Below are positions 40,851 through 57,700 of a stretch of DNA of 64,000 nucleotides, one piece after another; position 1 is the first letter of the stretch, and every line of letters begins with the position of its first letter. Both the position numbers and the translations under genes were made by a program. The notes below the pieces were generated by a model that searched no databases, was not told the DNA's origin, and saw only the letters and a program-made list of their open reading frames with translations. This stretch comes from a virus (lineage: Duplodnaviria > Heunggongvirae > Uroviricota > Caudoviricetes). The DNA lies in the IMG/VR virus record IMGVR_UViG_2841729706_000003, positions 41,668 through 105,667 of that record; one strand, 5' to 3'.

Positions 40851-42052
40851 GCTGCGACTCCGAAGAGCGGAAGGTTGTCATTGGTTGCCTGCTTCACTTG
40901 CGGGGCGACGCGCCACTCGGTTTCGATCCGACGGCGTGCCATGGCGGCATATTCAGGATTGAGTTCGATCAAAGAGGCGCGCCGCCCGTGACGCAGGGCG
41001 ACGAGTGCCGTGGTCCCTGCTCCACCGAATGGATCGAGCACGAGGCCACCCTTCGGACATCCGGCGAGAATGCAGCGCTCGGCGAGTTCTGGCGGGAAGG
41101 TCGCGAAATGGGCATCGGAGAACGGTTGGGTTGCGATATTCCAGACGCTTGCCGGTGCCGGCTCGTAATTGCGAAGGTTGCGACCAAAGCCGCGAAGTGT
41201 GGCCTCGATGCCTGTGTGGTTGATCTGCCCGGCATGGCGTGGACTGGCGACATCCGACGCTCTGATCTTTTCCTTGGCATCCCACCGATCGTTGAAGCCA
41301 GCCATACGCCGGCCTGACGATGCGCCGACGGCTGCGGCACTGGCAGCAGTCTGCGCTTGTTTTTGACGAGGGCCGCCAACTGCCTTCATGGTGCCATTGA
41401 TTTTCGCTCCACCGTTTGCTCGGTGCGAACCTTCCTGGCTCTCGACATCCTGCGACCAGCGACTGATGCTGGCCTCTGCTGATGGCTGCCGGACCGCCTC
41501 GGCGTCATAAAAGTACCGCGCTGATTTCGAGAGCATGAATATCTTCTCATGCGAGGTCGCCGGCCGGTCGCGGATGCTCTCCGGCATCGGGTTCGGCTTA
41601 GCCCAGACGATCTCGCTGCGGATCCACCAGCCGGCCTCTTGCAGCGCTATCGCGAGCCGGTTCGGCACCATGCAAAGGTCTTTAGCCTTGAGGACGCCGC
41701 CGATGGTCGAGAACGGCTTGTCACGAAATGTTCGGTCGTCGTTGCCCGTTGCCTTTGTGTCCGCCGCAGAGCGACCGTTCGGGCTTGTGGCGTAGCAGTC
41801 GCCGTAGTTGATCCACAGCGTACCAGTCGGCTTGAGAACCCGCTTCACAGCCTCGAATACGCGAACCATGACGTCGAGGTGTTCGCCGAGCGTCGGCTCA
41901 AGGCCTATCTGTCCGTCGACGCCATAGTCCCGCAGCCCCCAATATGGTGGGCTCGTTACGACACAGTCGACGGAATCAGGAGACATCTCTCCGAGCATTG
42001 TAAATACGTCACCAATCAGCAACTCAACCTTGCCGTCCAAAAATACGGGCAT
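40847..42052 (-). CDS. DNA methyltransferase (beta-class N4/N6 MTase; SPPY motif)
   Basis: VVTSPPYWGLRDYG catalytic motif and a downstream AdoMet-binding region ...LVLDPFGGAGTT...; no adjacent restriction gene recognised. Confidence 0.6.
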   Translation of the reverse strand: MPVFLDGKVELLIGDVFTMLGEMSPDSVDCVVTSPPYWGLRDYGVDGQIGLEPTLGEHLDVMVRVFEAVKRVLKPTGTLWINYGDCYATSPNGRSAADTKATGNDDRTFRDKPFSTIGGVLKAKDLCMVPNRLAIALQEAGWWIRSEIVWAKPNPMPESIRDRPATSHEKIFMLSKSARYFYDAEAVRQPSAEASISRWSQDVESQEGSHRANGGAKINGTMKAVGGPRQKQAQTAASAAAVGASSGRRMAGFNDRWDAKEKIRASDVASPRHAGQINHTGIEATLRGFGRNLRNYEPAPASVWNIATQPFSDAHFATFPPELAERCILAGCPKGGLVLDPFGGAGTTALVALRHGRRASLIELNPEYAAMARRRIETEWRVAPQVKQATNDNLPLFGVAA

Positions 42053-43210: not shown

Positions 43211-44323
43211 TTAGGCTACCCAACGTGCGCCGTGCAATGCGCGGCTTTCGTCGACCTTCGTCTGGCTGGTGGTGTTTGCAGCGATGCGAGCGCGGATGAC
43301 TTCGCGCGCCTCTTGGCCTGCGCGGACCATGAAGGCAGGTGACCGTAGATCAACAGGCAAGCGTGGGATGGCCTGAAGCGCAAAGTCTTTCTGTGGGAGA
43401 TTACTGTTCGCTGCCACGAAGTCGGCAAGGTCGTCGGCTCGACGCTTCACACCAGCCTCAACCGATGCCGCATATTCTCGCGCCGCATCGGCGTCAGCTT
43501 CATCAAGCAGCGGCAAGACGTCATCCAGGCCACCTGACAGAACAAGCGCTAGGATGTTCTTTTCCTGCAATATACTGTCTTTGGCGCGGTGTTTCAGAAC
43601 ATAGTCTTCGCCCTTTGCCTTAACCATCGTGCCGTCCTCGAATCGGACAACAAATCCCTCGGCGCCCTGTATTGCTCTGGCGTAGGCGAGGAATTCTGTG
43701 GCTGTGGTGTGTTGGGGCGTGTGGTGCTCGACCAAATCAATGCACGATTCACGAGAGAATGCCCATTGGAGTGAAGTTGGCAGATACTCGCCAGACGCGT
43801 TCTTTCGGATGGCAAGAAGAGTAAGGTCACTACGATCGTAGCGAACCACAATGCGGTTATCCGGAGCCGTCCACTCAAAGATTGGTGTCGCGCCGGCCTC
43901 CAACATGGCGTGACAGGCGTTTCGAAGCTTGGAAGTGATATGCCGCTCCGCCCTAACCGCATGATCGGTTCGCCCCATGCGCGTCATGAAGACCACTTCG
44001 CCATTGACGATCGCAGGATGGATCATCGAGCCGTCAAGCTTCTCCATGATTGTGTGCGGCCGACTGAAATCCAGAACATGAGGCTGCGTTTCTGGCCGCT
44101 CTCCGACGTTGAAGAATTTGTGAAACGGGCGAGCCAAAATTCTGCCATCGGGCGCAAACTTGATGCCGCGGCATTCTAACCGAGCCGGGTGGTCGAAGCT
44201 GTCAGGCAACGCGTAAACGTAGTCGATGACAGTGTAATCGCCCTTGTCGGCGACTACGAACTCCTGCCTGCCGTCGAGGTGCGGAAGAACATCGTCAATG
44301 TGGTTGATGCGGAAGTGGGTCAT
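43211..44323 (-). CDS. RNA ligase, Rnl1-like nucleotidyltransferase
   Basis: Motif I MEKLDGSM (KxDG), motif IV EGFVVRFEDG, motif V VLKHRAKD; about 370 aa from Met MTHFRINH; overlaps the end of the kinase-phosphatase gene. Confidence 0.55.
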   Translation of the reverse strand: MTHFRINHIDDVLPHLDGRQEFVVADKGDYTVIDYVYALPDSFDHPARLECRGIKFAPDGRILARPFHKFFNVGERPETQPHVLDFSRPHTIMEKLDGSMIHPAIVNGEVVFMTRMGRTDHAVRAERHITSKLRNACHAMLEAGATPIFEWTAPDNRIVVRYDRSDLTLLAIRKNASGEYLPTSLQWAFSRESCIDLVEHHTPQHTTATEFLAYARAIQGAEGFVVRFEDGTMVKAKGEDYVLKHRAKDSILQEKNILALVLSGGLDDVLPLLDEADADAAREYAASVEAGVKRRADDLADFVAANSNLPQKDFALQAIPRLPVDLRSPAFMVRAGQEAREVIRARIAANTTSQTKVDESRALHGARWVA

Positions 44324-45255
44324 GCAGCCTCTCTCCACTCGCCAACGCGCATATCCACGACCGAAACATTCGGCAGGCCATCACCCGCAAGAATGTCACG
44401 CAAGGCGGACTGCATGCGCTCGTGGTGCACTTCGACCAGCGTCTTATCGCCGATCAACACTTCGTTGCGCCAGCCAGCCGTCGCCTTCTTGTCGGCAAGC
44501 GGTCGATCGACAACAACATAGGAAATGGCAGAACCGACTGGCGCCAGCGACACGCACGCCAAACGGTCCCGCCTGCGAAGGTTGGTGGCGTCGATGCATA
44601 CCGAAAGCCCGCTATCGAGCCGAGCCTTTGCGATTCGATGCAGGGCAGTGAAAACGTCTTCGTTTCGCGACTGGTCTTGAAAATTGCCAGTATATTCGGC
44701 ACGGAGATCGTCGCTCGAAATGTATCCTGGCAAGCCCTTAGCGTATTTGGTCTTGCCCGCTCCGCTCGGACCCACCATCAAGGTCAAGAGCGAGCCGTCA
44801 TGAACAGGCGGAATTATCCGCCCTTCGTCCTCCCAGTTGGCGACAACCTGAAAGCAGGGAATCCCTTCTGCCCGCCACATATCGACCACGCGCTGCCGAT
44901 CGTCGTAAACGAGGTCAGGCCGCCCGTGTTCCTGCGACAACCAGTAGCGCTTCAGAACAGCGTCTGGCGTGCTGTCTCCTGCTGCCCGCATGTGCTGCAG
45001 GTAGCAAGGGTCAATGCCCATATCGGAAAGCCAGTTTTCGGTTTCGGCTCGAACGACGTCGCTGCGGGCCGACCAAATGCGAACTTTGTGGCCAGCGCGG
45101 AGGTGTGCGTGAAACGTCTCGATGACGTGAGAAACGCCACGATCAAAGACGCATTCACGGAAGAACGCCGCCCAATCTTTCTTGCCGCCGCGGACGTGGT
45201 GCACGCGATGGCCGATATCGGCAATAGTGCCGTCTAAGTCAAAAATGACGAACAC
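44320..45255 (-). CDS. Polynucleotide 3'-phosphatase / 5'-kinase (Pnkp) with HAD phosphatase N-terminal and P-loop kinase C-terminal
   Basis: HAD motif I FDLDGT, motif IV VYDDRQRVV, and Walker A GPSGAGKT in the C-terminal half; GTG start after CACCACCTGAGGAG. Confidence 0.6.
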   Translation of the reverse strand: MFVIFDLDGTIADIGHRVHHVRGGKKDWAAFFRECVFDRGVSHVIETFHAHLRAGHKVRIWSARSDVVRAETENWLSDMGIDPCYLQHMRAAGDSTPDAVLKRYWLSQEHGRPDLVYDDRQRVVDMWRAEGIPCFQVVANWEDEGRIIPPVHDGSLLTLMVGPSGAGKTKYAKGLPGYISSDDLRAEYTGNFQDQSRNEDVFTALHRIAKARLDSGLSVCIDATNLRRRDRLACVSLAPVGSAISYVVVDRPLADKKATAGWRNEVLIGDKTLVEVHHERMQSALRDILAGDGLPNVSVVDMRVGEWREAA

Positions 45256-48682: not shown

Positions 48683-49741
48683 CTACACCCGCATCGGCAT
48701 CAATACGGCAAGCAACGCGTCGTTGCCTTCCGCCGTGAACAGTGTCGGCGAACCGCCGTCGTTGAGCGCGATGCGGACAGTGGCGCCGGGAAGATTGGAG
48801 AGGAGTTCGCCGAGATAGGCCGCGTTGAAGCCGATTTCGATTGCATCGTCGTCGTAGACGGCAGGCACTTCTTCGGTTGCGCTGCCATGGTCGGCAGAAT
48901 TGACGGACAGGGTGACATTGCCGTCATCGATATTGAGGCGAACGGCACGCCCACGCTCAGTCGAGACGGTGGAGACGCGTTCCACAGCCTTTTGCAGCAC
49001 GTCCTTCTCGATGCTGACGAGTTTATCGTTTCCGGTCGGAATGACGCGCTGATAGTCTGGGAACGTTCCGTCGATAAGCTTCGACGTCAGAATAGCGTCG
49101 GGCGTTGTGACGCGCACCTTTCGTTCCGACAGGGCCAGCTTGACCTGGCCTTTTGGCAGCAGCGACACGAGCTTGCGAGGCAGGATGACATCAGGAATGT
49201 CATCGCTGTCCTGCCCGATGTGCCGAGCAAGGCGGTGTCCGTCGGTTGACACGGCAACAAGCTTGCCGTCAGCGGTATGCAGGAAAACGCCATTCAAGTA
49301 ATAGCGCGTCTCTTCTGTGCTGATCGCAAAGCTTACCGGAGCCACGAGCGCAGCCAGGTCAACGTCGAATTCAACGTCAAACTCGCCGGCATTAAGGTCC
49401 GGATAGTCGCTTGCGGGAAGCGTCTGGAGCGACCACTTCGCGTGGCCCGACTTGACGACAAGCGTGCCGTCAACGAGCTCGAGCGAAATGTCGCCACCCG
49501 CCTTCTTGACGATGCTGTCGAGCAACTTGGCATCAACCGTCGTGGTGCCAGGAACGGCATCAAGCACGGCAATGGAAGCCGACGCTTCAATGTCGAGGTC
49601 GGTGGCTTTAACAGTGAGCTTGCCATCTTCGACAGACAGCAAGACGTTTGACAGAATCGGGATAGTCGTTCGGGATTCGGGGATCTTCACAACGGCCGAA
49701 AGGACGCGCGAAAGATCGGCCTTGGAAAGGCTGATACGCAT
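48683..49741 (-). CDS. DNA polymerase III beta sliding-clamp homolog (phage-encoded)
   Basis: 352 aa; MRISLSKADLSRVLSAVVKIPESRTTIPILSNVLLSVEDGKLTVKATDLDIEA... matches DnaN N-terminal organisation; preceded by CCACACCACATGAGGAG. Confidence 0.6.
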   Translation of the reverse strand: MRISLSKADLSRVLSAVVKIPESRTTIPILSNVLLSVEDGKLTVKATDLDIEASASIAVLDAVPGTTTVDAKLLDSIVKKAGGDISLELVDGTLVVKSGHAKWSLQTLPASDYPDLNAGEFDVEFDVDLAALVAPVSFAISTEETRYYLNGVFLHTADGKLVAVSTDGHRLARHIGQDSDDIPDVILPRKLVSLLPKGQVKLALSERKVRVTTPDAILTSKLIDGTFPDYQRVIPTGNDKLVSIEKDVLQKAVERVSTVSTERGRAVRLNIDDGNVTLSVNSADHGSATEEVPAVYDDDAIEIGFNAAYLGELLSNLPGATVRIALNDGGSPTLFTAEGNDALLAVLMPMRV

Positions 49742-51771: not shown

Positions 51772-52584
51772 CTATGCCTCCGCCTCCTGCTCTTCCGGCA
51801 CAGCCTCACGCCCAAATGGTGCGACGATGTGTGGCTCGAAAATCGCGTAGCCCTGACCGGCTTTGTAGGTCAGCGCTCCGGTAAGCTTGTGGCGGTTCTT
51901 CGCAATGAAGCCAGGTCGCTCTTCGACGGCGATAAGGCGCTCTCCGCTACCCTCGCCGCGCTTCTTCACATTATCCTTGTGGAACCCTCCTGCTTCTTTC
52001 TGGATGGAAACACGCTGATGAATGAACCCGACGATGTCGGCTGCGTGTGTGAGAGAGTTGGCGTCATCCTGCATGCGCAGATTCAGGCGATAGCGCGGGA
52101 TGCTGTCGGTAATGACGCCGGGGTCTGTCTTGGCAACGATATGGGCGATAAGAATCACCGCAAATCCGGAAGCCTTGAGTTCCGTGAACTTTCGAAGAAT
52201 TTCACGCCAGACCTCGGCGGTTGCATCCTTCGGCTCGCGGAACTTGCCGTCGCTGATGTCTTTCCATCCACGACGCGCGCAAGCTTCGTCGATGACGATC
52301 TGCTCGAGGCTATCGAGCGTATCGACCACGAAGGTTAGGCGATCATGTTCGGCTTCCAGCATCCAATCGCACTGGTCGACGAACTCCTGATAGGTTTCTG
52401 TCAGGCCAAAGGAAAGCATATCGACGCCGACGGGAGGCCGTTCATTCGCCCCGGTCTGGACGTAAAACGGATTTGGCCAGTCGCCGGCAAACGAGGTTTT
52501 CCCCATGCCCTCGCCACCATAGATGATGACGATCGGTGGAAACGGATCTTCAACCCGTCGCAGTTGGTCGAATGAAATTGCCAA
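51772..52584 (-). CDS. AAA_24-family RecA-like ATPase (Sak4-like)
   Basis: Walker A YGGEGMGKTSFA, Walker B FVVDTLDSLE; TTG start after CACCACACTGAGGAG. Confidence 0.55.
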   Translation of the reverse strand: MAISFDQLRRVEDPFPPIVIIYGGEGMGKTSFAGDWPNPFYVQTGANERPPVGVDMLSFGLTETYQEFVDQCDWMLEAEHDRLTFVVDTLDSLEQIVIDEACARRGWKDISDGKFREPKDATAEVWREILRKFTELKASGFAVILIAHIVAKTDPGVITDSIPRYRLNLRMQDDANSLTHAADIVGFIHQRVSIQKEAGGFHKDNVKKRGEGSGERLIAVEERPGFIAKNRHKLTGALTYKAGQGYAIFEPHIVAPFGREAVPEEQEAEA

Positions 52585-52637: not shown

Positions 52638-53495
52638 TTAGTGCTGAAGATTGAGCATCGGCACGCTACCGTTAGGCAGCATGGTCTGCGGCAGCCTGCC
52701 GTCCCAACGCTCAGCTTGTGTCAGGGCCACAAGGCCTGGATTGTCGCGTAGGGCGTCGCCGCGGGCCTTGATCGCAAGAGCCTCTGCGTCACCGCGTAGG
52801 CGGATGGCTTCTGCCTCGGCTTCGGCGGATGCACGCACCGCGTCTGCCTGTGCCCTTGCCTGCGTCACTACGATTTCCGCCTGCACCTTCTCGCGTTCAG
52901 CGTTCTGGCGGAGCTTCTGGACCTCGACCTCGGCAAGCATTCTCTGCTCAATACTGGCTTCGTATGCGTCGGAGAAGTCGATGTTCTCGATCTGCACGGA
53001 CTCGATGACTACTGGCCCGCGAACCGACTTCTGAATAGCTTCGGCAACCTCAAGATTGAGCCGTGCCCGCTCTTGGATGGCTGTAACCGCGTTGAAGCGG
53101 CCGAAAACCGTCTTCAGGTCTTCGTGTAGCCGTCGATCGACAAGTCGAGAAAGCATGCCGTCTTCGCCCCCGTAGGTGGCGTACACGTCCGTTACGGCAT
53201 CGCTTGGAATGCGGTAGCTGACCGAAACGGCAACAACGGCGGACTGCTGATCCTTGGAATAAGCCGGCACGCCTTCATAAATACGAGCCTTAGACTGGAC
53301 CGAAATCTTGACGACCTCGTCGACCCATGGTGCCTTGAAACCAAGTCCTGGCTGTGCGGTGCCGGTGAGTGCGCCGTTACGAAGAATGACGCCTCGCTCT
53401 CCCTGATCAATGGTGTACCACGACCCGAATACGACCGTGATTGCAACGAAGAACAGAAAGACTCCGCCCAAAATAGCGATGATACGTCCAATCAT
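52638..53495 (-). CDS. SPFH/band-7 (HflC/prohibitin-like) membrane protein
   Basis: N-terminal transmembrane helix IIAILGGVFLFFVAITVVFG then band-7 domain ...GERGVILRNGAL...ISVQSKARIYE... and C-terminal Ala/Glu-rich coiled coil. Confidence 0.6.
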   Translation of the reverse strand: MIGRIIAILGGVFLFFVAITVVFGSWYTIDQGERGVILRNGALTGTAQPGLGFKAPWVDEVVKISVQSKARIYEGVPAYSKDQQSAVVAVSVSYRIPSDAVTDVYATYGGEDGMLSRLVDRRLHEDLKTVFGRFNAVTAIQERARLNLEVAEAIQKSVRGPVVIESVQIENIDFSDAYEASIEQRMLAEVEVQKLRQNAEREKVQAEIVVTQARAQADAVRASAEAEAEAIRLRGDAEALAIKARGDALRDNPGLVALTQAERWDGRLPQTMLPNGSVPMLNLQH

Positions 53496-54963: not shown

Positions 54964-56094
54964 TTAGGCGGCGGTGGCCAGCCAGTACTCGACGGCGTCT
55001 TTGGCCTCCTTCAGGCCGATGACGAACCGCTCCTCATACCCGGTTCGGTAGCCGTACTCCGAGGATACGAACGTCTGACGCTTGCCGCCCGCATCACGAT
55101 AGGCCTTGATTGCCTCGATGCGCTTGCCTTCAGCCGCAAGCCGCTGCCATTCGTGGGCATAGGCTGGCTTTTCTTCCCGCTTGGTGGAGACAAGAGTGTA
55201 AACGCCGAACTCGCTACCCTTGTGCTTCTTGGCCAGGCGCGCTGCTTCGCGTTCGGCGAAAGCCGCCGACGAGTGAACGTGCGGTCTGACACTTGGGAGC
55301 GGCTGGCCGTTCTCGATGAGGCAGACGATGGCGGGTTTAGATGCGGACGGAGTGACGAGCTCAAAGTAGCGATCAAGGTCACCCATCCACGGATACTCAC
55401 CGTGATAGCTGCGCCATTCCATCGGCCCGACCTTGCGACCGTCGCGGGTCTTGTAGAACTTGCCGGCCTTAATGGTTAGGGCGGTGGCTGGTGCCAGTTT
55501 TAAATACTTCATTGGGATGCTTGGGCCGTCGCCGCCAGGAACGGCACTGTAGCTTGCGTAATCGTGTCCAGCATCGGTGATGTAGAAGTGACCGGCATAT
55601 TCACCAGCGCGGCGCCAGTGTTTGTTCCAGTGCTCGACAAGGTCATTTGCGCATTCTACTGACTTGTCCTGCACTACAGCGTCACCGACTTTGAAAGGCG
55701 CAGCAGGAGCAGGTTCGATCTGATGAGTCCGCAAGTACTGATTGTGGCCATTGAAGAGGTAGCCAGTGCCGCCCTCGCCATCTCCACATGTGCGCTCGAT
55801 GACGTATTCCACACCGACTTCATACTGGGTGATTTTGCTTCCGGAGCGCGTCGTGTTGTCTACAACCCGCACCCTGTCCCCGACTTTGAACGCGGGTATG
55901 AGTTCAATCTCGCCGTCAGGGCGGTAGAAATTCCAGCGACGCCGGCTTTTGCCGTGCCCCGCAAACGGGGCGTCCATTTCAACTCCGGCACGACCAAAAT
56001 CAATCTCGGCGACTGTCCCAAGCTGCCCTGGCGTAGCACGGCCATAGCCGTCCGTTACCACCTTGACCCGATCTCCAACCTTAAACTTTCCCAT
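54964..56094 (-). CDS. Early protein with three KOW-like (FKVGDRV-K/R-VV) beta-barrel repeats and a C-terminal ribosomal-L7/L12-CTD-like segment
   Basis: Repeats FKVGDRVKVV (aa 4), FKVGDRVRVV (about aa 69) and FKVGDAVV (about aa 135). C-terminus ...LAAEGKRIEAIKAYRDAGG...IGLKEAKDAVEYW closely parallels L7/L12 ...[32 protein letters not shown]... Confidence 0.55.
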   Translation of the reverse strand: MGKFKVGDRVKVVTDGYGRATPGQLGTVAEIDFGRAGVEMDAPFAGHGKSRRRWNFYRPDGEIELIPAFKVGDRVRVVDNTTRSGSKITQYEVGVEYVIERTCGDGEGGTGYLFNGHNQYLRTHQIEPAPAAPFKVGDAVVQDKSVECANDLVEHWNKHWRRAGEYAGHFYITDAGHDYASYSAVPGGDGPSIPMKYLKLAPATALTIKAGKFYKTRDGRKVGPMEWRSYHGEYPWMGDLDRYFELVTPSASKPAIVCLIENGQPLPSVRPHVHSSAAFAEREAARLAKKHKGSEFGVYTLVSTKREEKPAYAHEWQRLAAEGKRIEAIKAYRDAGGKRQTFVSSEYGYRTGYEERFVIGLKEAKDAVEYWLATAA

Positions 56095-56125: not shown

Positions 56126-56413
56126 TTAAGCCGCTCCCTTGGTTTTGGTGTTCTTGTCCAGTCGCACCTTCTTGGTGAAATCGACCGGGATCACGTTGTC
56201 ACCGCTGCCACCGCCATGGAATTCGTCGTTCTCCACGCGATGAAGCTCCCATTCATGGAACGCCAGAACAGCCAGCGAAGGCGAAACGCGGATGTAGACA
56301 AGAGACCCAGCGAAGCCGATTACGATGCCGAACACACTGGTGTTCATCTTGTGCTCGACGACATCACCGAGTTCAAAGAATTCATCTTCAGGCGGCATGG
56401 GCAGCCTCCACAA
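56126..56413 (-). CDS. Hypothetical protein
   Basis: 95-aa ORF. Confidence 0.3.
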   Translation of the reverse strand: MWRLPMPPEDEFFELGDVVEHKMNTSVFGIVIGFAGSLVYIRVSPSLAVLAFHEWELHRVENDEFHGGGSGDNVIPVDFTKKVRLDKNTKTKGAA

Positions 56414-56651
56414 AAGGACGGTCCAAGACCGAAATACGGGGGAGGCTGACGGCTTGGGTGTAGCAGCTGCGCGAGCCGCAGCTTCCCAACACCGGCATAT
56501 GCTTGACGGTGATGGCCTTCGTGGCGATCGGCCGTACTCGCTGGTAGAGGTGGTACGTCACCATCCCGACGCTTGTTTCCAAGCGTTTTGCGATGGCACG
56601 CAGGCTTAGTCCCTCGCCGCGAAGGGCAAGGATTTGTTCTCTCTTTGACAT
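56388..56651 (-). CDS. Cro-like HTH regulator (first gene of the leftward early operon)
   Basis: From Met MSKREQILALRGEGLSLRAIAKRLETSVGMVTYHL (HTH); divergent from the repressor gene; preceded by CACCACATCGAGGAGTTCA-ATG. Confidence 0.5.
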   Translation of the reverse strand: MSKREQILALRGEGLSLRAIAKRLETSVGMVTYHLYQRVRPIATKAITVKHMPVLGSCGSRSCYTQAVSLPRISVLDRPFVEAAHAA

Positions 56652-56766
56652 TGAACTCCTCGATGTGGTGTTGACAAAGCGTTGGTTACGCGCCATGTCT
56701 TTTGCGCCCGCTGTGGTGGCGGGTAGGAACGCAGGTGGGACTCCTCTTACCTTCTAGTACGAGATC

Positions 56767-56959: not shown

Positions 56960-57700
56960 TTGAGGGATAAGACGAATATGAGACGAATTACCCCGGCAAA
57001 AAAATCTCGCTTCGTGCAGATGCTGGAAAACGCCATAGAGGCGGAGGGCGGAAGCCAGAAAGCATTTGCGGAGAAGCACGATATTGGCCAGCAGACGCTA
57101 AACACATGGATAGTCAGCGGTCGCGTCCCCACGAAGCAGTTCCACCAAAGGCTCCGCGACGTCCTGAAAATCACGCAGGATCAGTTAGACGAACTGCTGG
57201 CCGAAGTGGAAAACAGGCGCGCTGCCGCCTATGAAGCATCCGTTGCGCAAGAGCCGCCCAACGGCAGGATAGCCGGCGGCAAGATGCCTGAAAACCGGGA
57301 CAATAGCGTACCGGTTCTAGGGCGTGCCGTAGGCGGAGAGCTCGGCGAATACGAGTTCAACGGCGAGGCGTTGGATTGGGTAATGCGTCCGCCTTCATTG
57401 GCCGGCGTTGGCGACGCCTACGCGGTCTTCGTCGACGGCGAGTCTATGGTACCGCGCTATCGCCCTGGCGAAACAGTATGGGTCCACCCTCACCGCCCTG
57501 CGCGCAAGGGTGATGACGTTGTTGTCCAACTGCACCGGCTAGACGACAGCCATGAGCCGCCATACGGATACATCAAGGAATTCGTTGGTTGGACGTCGAA
57601 CAAGCTCATTCTGCAGCAGCACAATCCGTCAAAGAAGATCGAATTTGATCGCGAATCGGTGAAGTCAGTAGACACCATCGTGTTCGCAGAGCGTGTCTGA
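56960..57700 (+). CDS. cI-like repressor (HTH plus S24 LexA-like autopeptidase)
   Basis: N-terminal HTH ...QKAFAEKHDIGQQTLNTWI...; C-terminal GESMVPRY (Ser nucleophile) and ...IKEFVGW... (Lys) S24 motifs. Confidence 0.65.
   Translation: MRDKTNMRRITPAKKSRFVQMLENAIEAEGGSQKAFAEKHDIGQQTLNTWIVSGRVPTKQFHQRLRDVLKITQDQLDELLAEVENRRAAAYEASVAQEPPNGRIAGGKMPENRDNSVPVLGRAVGGELGEYEFNGEALDWVMRPPSLAGVGDAYAVFVDGESMVPRYRPGETVWVHPHRPARKGDDVVVQLHRLDDSHEPPYGYIKEFVGWTSNKLILQQHNPSKKIEFDRESVKSVDTIVFAERV

Follow-up and report, generated by a model that had tools for sequence, protein, structure and literature searches.

The closest described systems are phage proteins with an embedded domain of the ribosomal stalk protein bL12 (L7/L12), as in Salmonella phage FSL SP-076 (AGF88397) and Erwinia phage Ea9-2 (AHI60108) (Mizuno et al. 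2019, Nat Commun 10:752). The embedded domains keep the residues that contact EF-G and EF-Tu, and a link to translation factors was proposed (Mizuno et al. 2019, PMC6375957). Peptides of one such protein were found in preparations of 70S ribosomes, and a tagged protein of this kind failed to affinity-purify ribosomes (PMC6375957). Here, we describe a gene at positions 54964..56094 of a 64,000-nucleotide stretch of Caudoviricetes DNA (hereafter the window; positions 41,668 to 105,667 of IMG/VR record IMGVR_UViG_2841729706_000003), which carries a complete prophage. As in the proteins of Mizuno et al. 2019, a segment of the PF00542 (Ribosomal_L12) type is found in a larger, unrelated phage polypeptide, and the EF-Tu/EF-G contact residues are kept. 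However, the match in the proteins of Mizuno et al. 2019 is about as long as the whole C-terminal domain (CTD), judged from a coverage of 9-16% of 418-724 amino acids (aa), whereas that of the family described here is partial, being limited to a 30-aa α4-turn-α5 segment on a different β-α-β unit, and in our query it passes the Pfam cut-off only once an insert is removed. An earlier note on this DNA took the architecture to be undescribed; the work of Mizuno et al. 2019 precedes it, as do the GenBank labels of some homologues ("ribosomal L7/L12 domain-containing protein", "ribosomal protein L7/L12"). What is new in this family is the helix pair standing alone on a different scaffold, the SH3-like repeats, the fixed early-operon position and the Ala-Ala tail, features that set it apart from the proteins of Mizuno et al. 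2019, as do its temperate Rhizobiales hosts.

The gene is a complete open reading frame (ORF) of 376 aa plus stop, as the earlier note had it, and lies on the minus strand, as do all the features of the protein located below. Translation of this frame starts with MGKFKVGDRVKVV, and the plus-strand frame of the same interval has many stops. A Shine-Dalgarno sequence, GAGGAG, lies 7 nucleotides 5' of the ATG. A homologue search returned 686 relatives, among them one from Mesorhizobium sp. DCY119, annotated as hypothetical and encoded on a 4.8-Mb contig, that is 100% identical to the target, and homologues are present in prophages of Rhizobium, Sinorhizobium, Mesorhizobium, Brucella/Ochrobactrum and Agrobacterium. 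The family layout consists of zero to five FKVGD-type SH3-like units, a near-invariant motif (GKFYKTRDGRKVGP; IEAGKFYKTRDGRKVGP) and a C-terminal module of ~105 aa, which was C-terminal in every one of the 232 clusters (50% identity) recovered by an exhaustive profile search at E ≤ 1e-30. In the target, the near-invariant motif reads LTIKAGKFYKTRDGRKVGP (aa 206-224, 55423..55479), with I208, G211, Y214 and T216-P224 at least 90% conserved. The whole protein matched no functional family in Pfam, NCBIfam, PADLOC or the PDB sequences, its PHROG matches are all of unknown function, and a search of the Rhizobiales phage literature found nothing specific to the family. The target is a genuine, uncharacterised early gene, and its family is common in Rhizobiales prophages.

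The last part of the module resembles helices 4 and 5 of bL12. A Pfam scan of the whole protein gave no Ribosomal_L12 match, and against the intact C-terminal 69 aa PF00542 reached only E = 0.079, over helix 5 alone. When the insert was deleted from the tail, the score rose to 28.6 bits (E = 1.8e-6; cut-off 25.9), with positions 8-35 of the 67 in the profile covered, so that the profile search of the C terminus does pass the cut-off, only after removal of the insert. Homologues that have no insert score 27-30 bits natively, above threshold, and 65 of the 118 family members match PF00542 at E ≤ 1e-3. In agreement with these results, hhalign aligned the family tail to three bL12 CTDs with a probability of 94-95% and 50% identity over 30 columns, which correspond to helices 4-5 of the bL12 CTD (1CTF). 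When a profile of the C-terminal module was compared to all PDB sequences, the top 11 matches were bL12, at marginal E values (0.014-0.085), and a twelfth bL12 ranked lower. The α4-equivalent helix, LAAEGKRIEAIKAYRDAGG (aa 319-337, 55084..55140), is placed by Pfam, the profile comparison to the PDB, hhalign and the alignment, and the α5-equivalent helix, IGLKEAKDAVEYW (aa 359-371, 54982..55020; IGLKEAKDAVE), by Pfam, hhalign and the alignment. Residues R325, I326, I329, K330 and R333 of the target map to K65, V66, I69, K70 and R73 of bL12. The resemblance of the helix pair to bL12 at the sequence level is above chance but short. The likeness to the L7/L12 CTD put forward in the earlier note therefore stands for the pair α4-α5 and falls away for the rest of the domain, only 30 of its 67 positions being matched.

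The two helices of the target are separated by the insert KRQTFVSSEYGYRTGYEERFV (aa 338-358, 55021..55083), which occupies the α4-α5 turn; its length, first put at roughly 20 aa, is 21 aa. It is predicted to form a β-hairpin, with a predicted local distance difference test (pLDDT) score of ~83-88. Only the query and nine of the 120 homologues listed carry such an insert, and the segment is uninterrupted elsewhere. The carriers with names are all from Mesorhizobium (P0015, P0019 and P0022), and others are metagenome proteins (P0002, P0004, P0006, P0007 and P0018). The consensus of the insert-free tails is KIxAIKELRxxTGLGLKxAKDAVEHW.

In the work of Kothe et al. 2004 and Diaconu et al. 2005, the factor-binding residues of bL12 are reportedly V66, I69, K70 and R73. 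We aligned 189 insert-free family tails to Escherichia coli bL12 and counted conservation at each position. In helix 4, the family has K at 82% for K65, I at 80% for V66, I at 86% for I69, K at 79% and R at 11% for K70, and R at 91% for R73. Further along, the figures are G 86% for G77, L 91% for L80, K 57% for K81, K 84% for K84, D 61% for D85, V 94% for V87 and E 80% for E88. Taken together, the bL12 residues K65, V66 (as I), I69, K70, R73, T76, G77, L78, L80, K81, A83, K84, D85, V87 and E88 are those of the family majority (56-94%), and the positions equivalent to 62, 64, 67, 74, 75 and 79 vary freely across the 189 members. The query itself keeps R325, I326, I329, K330, R333, L361, K362, E363 and K365. 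The retention of the Lys/Arg positions and of the KEAKD stretch claimed in the earlier note is thus seen in the query, and for the family it extends to Lys/Arg at K65, K70, R73 and K84 (79-91%) but not to E82. In bL12, helices 4 and 5 contact helix D of EF-Tu and other translational GTPases (Kothe et al. 2004, as relayed in PMC3505967). The kept surface Lys/Arg positions are the strongest argument for a functional face.

Outside the helix pair, the family and bL12 differ. The family has no sequence match to β1, β2, α6 or β3 of the CTD, and the query has no match, at E ≤ 10, to the N-terminal dimerisation and uL10-binding domain of bL12 (Ribosomal_L12_N). With the bL12 model TIGR00855, the score is 23.5 bits (cut-off 84.4), and the locus is a prophage early operon, between cro-like and Sak4-like genes, not rplJL. 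The family is therefore distinct from bL12, as it lacks the N-terminal domain, matches less than half of the CTD positions and is encoded in another operon. These same four results, the absent L10-binding domain, the 30 of 67 positions, the TIGR00855 score and the operon, also make it very improbable that the protein is a true stalk substitute that replaces bL12 in 70S ribosomes. The database name "ribosomal protein L7/L12" and the phage bL12-domain peptides in 70S preparations would favour such a role, and the tagged phage protein that was of no use for ribosome affinity purification speaks against it (PMC6375957).

AlphaFold2 models were made of the whole protein and of the C-terminal module. 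In the full-length model, aa 250-376 are very confident; modelled alone, the module has a pLDDT of 92.8 and a predicted template modelling score of only 0.57. From its N to its C terminus, the modelled module comprises β-β-α-β, a short helix (HEWQRLA), a helix, the β-hairpin of the insert and a last helix. The β-β-α-β half (aa 254-313, 55156..55335) is conserved, with P265, P267, P271, H274, E283, R286, L287, G293 and F296 invariant, and the module consensus reads AIVALIENGQPKPSxxPxVHxxxxxAxxEAxRLAxxHKGxEFGVYxL...YxHEWQRLAAxGxKIxAIKELRxxTGLxLKxAKDAVExW...AA. The module is a small α/β sandwich with a helix-turn-helix after it that corresponds to bL12 helices 4-5. With the C-terminal model as query, Foldseek found no PDB structure at E < 0.8, and domain fusions across the 118 members involve only SH3-like families and Ribosomal_L12. 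Only about half of ClpS, the N-degron adaptor of ClpAP (3O2O, 4YJM), is aligned with the module; the hhalign probability was below 1%, and Foldseek gave no confirmation. We also considered stand-alone members of 125 aa as a minimal version of the family. The one examined, P0165 (125 aa, apparently stand-alone), has a 777-bp uncalled gap upstream (L006 5224-6001) and is probably disrupted, mis-called or a pseudogene, and the idea was set aside.

At the N terminus, FKVGD was found at aa 4, 69 and 134, which makes the spacing of the three repeats, announced as about 65 aa, exactly 65 aa. Repeat 1 (FKVGDRVKVV at aa 4; aa 1-66, 55897..56094) is an SH3-like or KOW-like small β-barrel according to AlphaFold2, Foldseek and weak Pfam matches (SH3_12, TrmI-like_N). 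Its pLDDT is 81-90 over most of its length, with a drop to 65 in aa 41-50. The best Foldseek matches are Spt5 KOW2-3 (4ytl), KIN17 (2ckk) and Spt5 KOW5, with probabilities of 0.99-1.0 and E values of 0.01-0.16, and NdhS and ribosomal SH3-like proteins are matched as well. Repeat 2 (FKVGDRVRVV at aa 69; aa 67-132, 55699..55896) is SH3-like by sequence only, with a Pfam match to NHase_beta_C over aa 65-102 (E = 8.9e-4), and repeat 3 (FKVGDAVV at aa 134; aa 133-203, 55486..55698) is more divergent and has a helix inserted, and is of a type kept as the N-terminal unit in many homologues. Neither of these two forms a confident barrel in the model, in which aa 89-149 are of low confidence and aa 150-200 form a confident unit. 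Only the ~10-residue FKVGD motif is common to the three repeats, and BLASTP of unit against unit aligns 7-23 residues. Among homologues, SH3_12 (31.3 bits, cut-off 26.2) and NHase_beta_C (32.3 bits, cut-off 27.7) pass their Pfam thresholds, and SH3_15 is also among the SH3-like families matched. The KOW model (PF00467) matches neither the query nor the separate repeats at E ≤ 10, and none of the 118 family members at E ≤ 1e-3. Repeat 1 has the same fold as the KOW and SH3-like barrels of Spt5, KIN17, Xrn1 and the nitrile hydratase β C-terminal domain, while the target repeats are alike only in their FKVGD start; "KOW-like", the term of the earlier note, is right as a description of the fold and wrong as family membership.

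Barrels of this kind raise the question of a nucleic-acid-binding early regulator, in which a basic helix-turn-helix and SH3/KOW/Tudor-like barrels would act on DNA or RNA, be it in the lysis-lysogeny decision, in antitermination or in the start of replication by the Sak4-DUF669-DnaN module. The barrels do resemble the nucleic-acid-associated KOW, YccV and Pif1-SH3 domains by Foldseek and Pfam, although SH3-like barrels are also generic protein-binding folds. Lys/Arg residues are conserved in the helix pair, and the α4-α5 unit of bL12 was early likened to a DNA-binding helix-turn-helix, but the tail matches no helix-turn-helix family even at E ≤ 10. In every context examined, the gene is flanked by the immunity switch on one side and by the replication and recombination genes on the other; in and near it, however, we found no iterons or other origin-like repeats, only short chance ones. 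On balance, we regard such a regulator as unlikely.

The protein ends in LATAA (aa 372-376, 54967..54981), a candidate ssrA-like ClpXP degron. An Ala-Ala terminus is present in 198 of 215 family members (92%), and the tail that precedes it varies in length and sequence. In ssrA-like ClpXP degrons, the terminal Ala-Ala is the key determinant, necessary but not sufficient (PMC10862746). The LATAA tail presents a free Ala-Ala after hydrophobic or neutral residues, with a Thr at -3 that is not optimal. In Caulobacter, degradation of CtrA by ClpXP requires its terminal Ala-Ala. The tail thus suggests that the target protein may be short-lived through ClpXP. No downstream gene overlaps the target stop codon in the contexts examined, and Ala-Ala therefore appears to be selected at the protein level.

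Ala-Ala termini are also frequent elsewhere in these genomes. In positions 1-50000 of Rhizobium phage RHph_TM3_3_14B, 23 of the 72 annotated coding sequences have this terminus, where 1.4% would be expected (binomial p = 7e-25); terminase, portal, primase and sigma factor are among their products. A crude greedy set for the window contains 91 ORFs, of which 12 show the same ending, all of them on the minus strand between 27.9 and 56.7 kb; this set left out the 95-aa ORF at 56126-56413, which itself ends in -GAA. We asked whether the tail is specific to the early operon, and rejected this in RHph_TM3_3_14B, in which such tails occur genome-wide (Fisher p = 0.35). For 17 of the 23 sequences of that phage, Shine-Dalgarno-like codons precede a stop that overlaps or adjoins the start codon of the following gene (GC-ATG-A, TGATG, TAATG), and some of the -AA excess may therefore be a spacer constraint at the DNA level. 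The non-overlapping cases, the target family included, point to selection at the protein level, perhaps for ClpXP timing.

Based on these features, we tentatively favour a role as a transient adaptor. Its two bL12-like helices would bind the G domain of EF-Tu, EF-G, IF2 or RF3 in the manner of the ribosomal stalk; the SH3-like barrels would tether a second partner, which could be the ribosome, RNA or the product of a co-translated neighbour of ~95 aa; and the Ala-Ala tail would hand the protein to ClpXP, so that its action would be confined to early infection. We consider it improbable that the protein goes as far as capturing or retargeting a host translational GTPase within minutes of the start of lytic growth, which would make it a soluble imitation, timed by ClpXP, of the stalk surface that recruits the factors.

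Several observations weigh against the adaptor role. The residues that are invariant across the family are found in the β-α-β half and in the GKFYKTRDGRKVGP motif, outside the L12-like helices, and the bL12 match is confined to α4-turn-α5, or ~30 of the 67 PF00542 positions. A permuted bL12 CTD was considered and has no support at the sequence level, since permuted constructs in Pfam and permuted profiles in hhalign add nothing to the match past positions 8-37. Within the matched segment, E82 (A/P/S/G in the family) and G79 are not conserved, and a minority of members are without the L12 motif altogether (e.g., P0010, P0017, P0058 and P0084). The conserved hydrophobic positions may be buried in a different fold and kept for structure, and in the target itself the 21-aa hairpin is modelled in the turn that joins the helices, adjacent to the putative binding face. 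Contacts between a single bL12 CTD and a factor are weak and transient, and a one-copy decoy would therefore be poor at sequestering. Finally, the adjacent genes serve replication and recombination, not translation.

The same pattern of conservation could mean that the helices are structural or generic and that the module binds a non-translational target. A ClpS-like fold, the Ala-Ala tail and an SPFH/HflC-like neighbour suggest one version in which the protein would be an adaptor, competitor or inhibitor of host AAA+ proteases (ClpA or ClpX) and would in this way shape the stability of early regulators. The invariant P265, P267, P271, H274, E283 and R286 are consistent with it, as are the 92% of members with an Ala-Ala tail, the Band_7/SPFH gene found in the operon both here and in a Brucella prophage, and the members that drop the L12 motif and keep the rest of the module. 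Against a Clp target, there is no sequence likeness to ClpS in hhalign and no match to the ClpS Pfam family (PF02617) in the query or the 118 members, and any non-translational target leaves the 80-91% retention of the bL12 helix-4 surface Lys/Arg unexplained. We hold this alternative to be possible, though doubtful. The rest of our expectation goes to functions outside the readings considered here.

The gene context bears out the placement in an early lytic operon next to the immunity switch. A CI/LexA-type S24 repressor gene (56960..57700, plus strand) is divergent from the early operon, whose first gene is cro-like and encodes a helix-turn-helix protein (56388..56696, minus). The target had been placed directly after cro, but an ORF of ~95 aa (56126..56413, minus; phrog_28502, unknown function), the neighbour mentioned above, intervenes. 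The order is cro-like gene, ~95-aa ORF, target, three small ORFs and the Band_7/SPFH (HflC/HflK-like) gene (52638-53495, minus), followed by the gene of a Sak4-like AAA_24 ATPase (51772-52584, minus). Beyond it lie genes for a DUF669/SSB-like protein, the DnaN β-clamp (48683-49741, minus), a Cas4-type exonuclease, a helicase, a polynucleotide kinase/NinI-like phosphatase (44320-45255, minus), a methyltransferase and a primase, and then terminase and portal. Scans for promoters and terminators around the target gene gave background levels.

This gene order is common to Rhizobium phages RHph_X2_25 and RHph_TM3_3_14B and to prophages of Brucella pituitosa and Nitratireductor. The shared order is repressor, cro-like gene, small gene or genes, a gene of ~87-101 aa, the target, one or two small genes, Sak4, DUF669 and DnaN, with a Band_7 gene before Sak4 in some genomes. 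The position of the target beside the repressor/cro switch is the same in the five contexts of intact members; in a sixth (L006), with a probably truncated member, no ~95-aa gene is called and the 777-bp uncalled gap lies there. The homologue of the ~95-aa ORF overlaps or abuts the target start in the RHph phages and in the Brucella and Nitratireductor prophages, and its product is a probable functional partner of the target protein.

Other genes of these operons deserve mention. The DnaN gene, with the DUF669/SSB-like and Cas4-type exonuclease genes, forms a module kept in all related phages examined. The Band_7/SPFH gene is also found in the early operon of the Brucella pituitosa prophage (L003 9677-10525). 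In E. coli, HflKC modulates the FtsH-dependent turnover of lambda CII, and by analogy a phage copy beside the immunity switch may have a bearing on the lysis-lysogeny decision. In a related prophage (L006 392-2439), a T4-type RNA ligase gene adjoins the PNKP gene, and the kinase/phosphatase and ligase together resemble the RNA (tRNA) repair sets that counter anticodon nucleases. Between DUF669 and DnaN of an early operon that is otherwise syntenic, the Brucella pituitosa prophage has an inserted gene (L003 12654-13457) with a Pfam match to Gad2 (PF26128), which we take to be an anti-Gabija protein family.

For annotation, these results mean that the label "ribosomal protein L7/L12" carried by many genomes is wrong for this family. 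Should the helices prove to be merely structural, the family would still be among the most conserved unexplained genes beside the immunity switch of these prophages. If the protein does dock on a translational GTPase as a transient adaptor, it would be an accessible and widespread case in which phages imitate the surface of the stalk that binds the factors, and would offer a handle on the role of the phage "bL12 domains" known since 2019. If it were moreover a mimic that captures a host GTPase, it would represent a new route of host takeover at the GTPase-associated centre.

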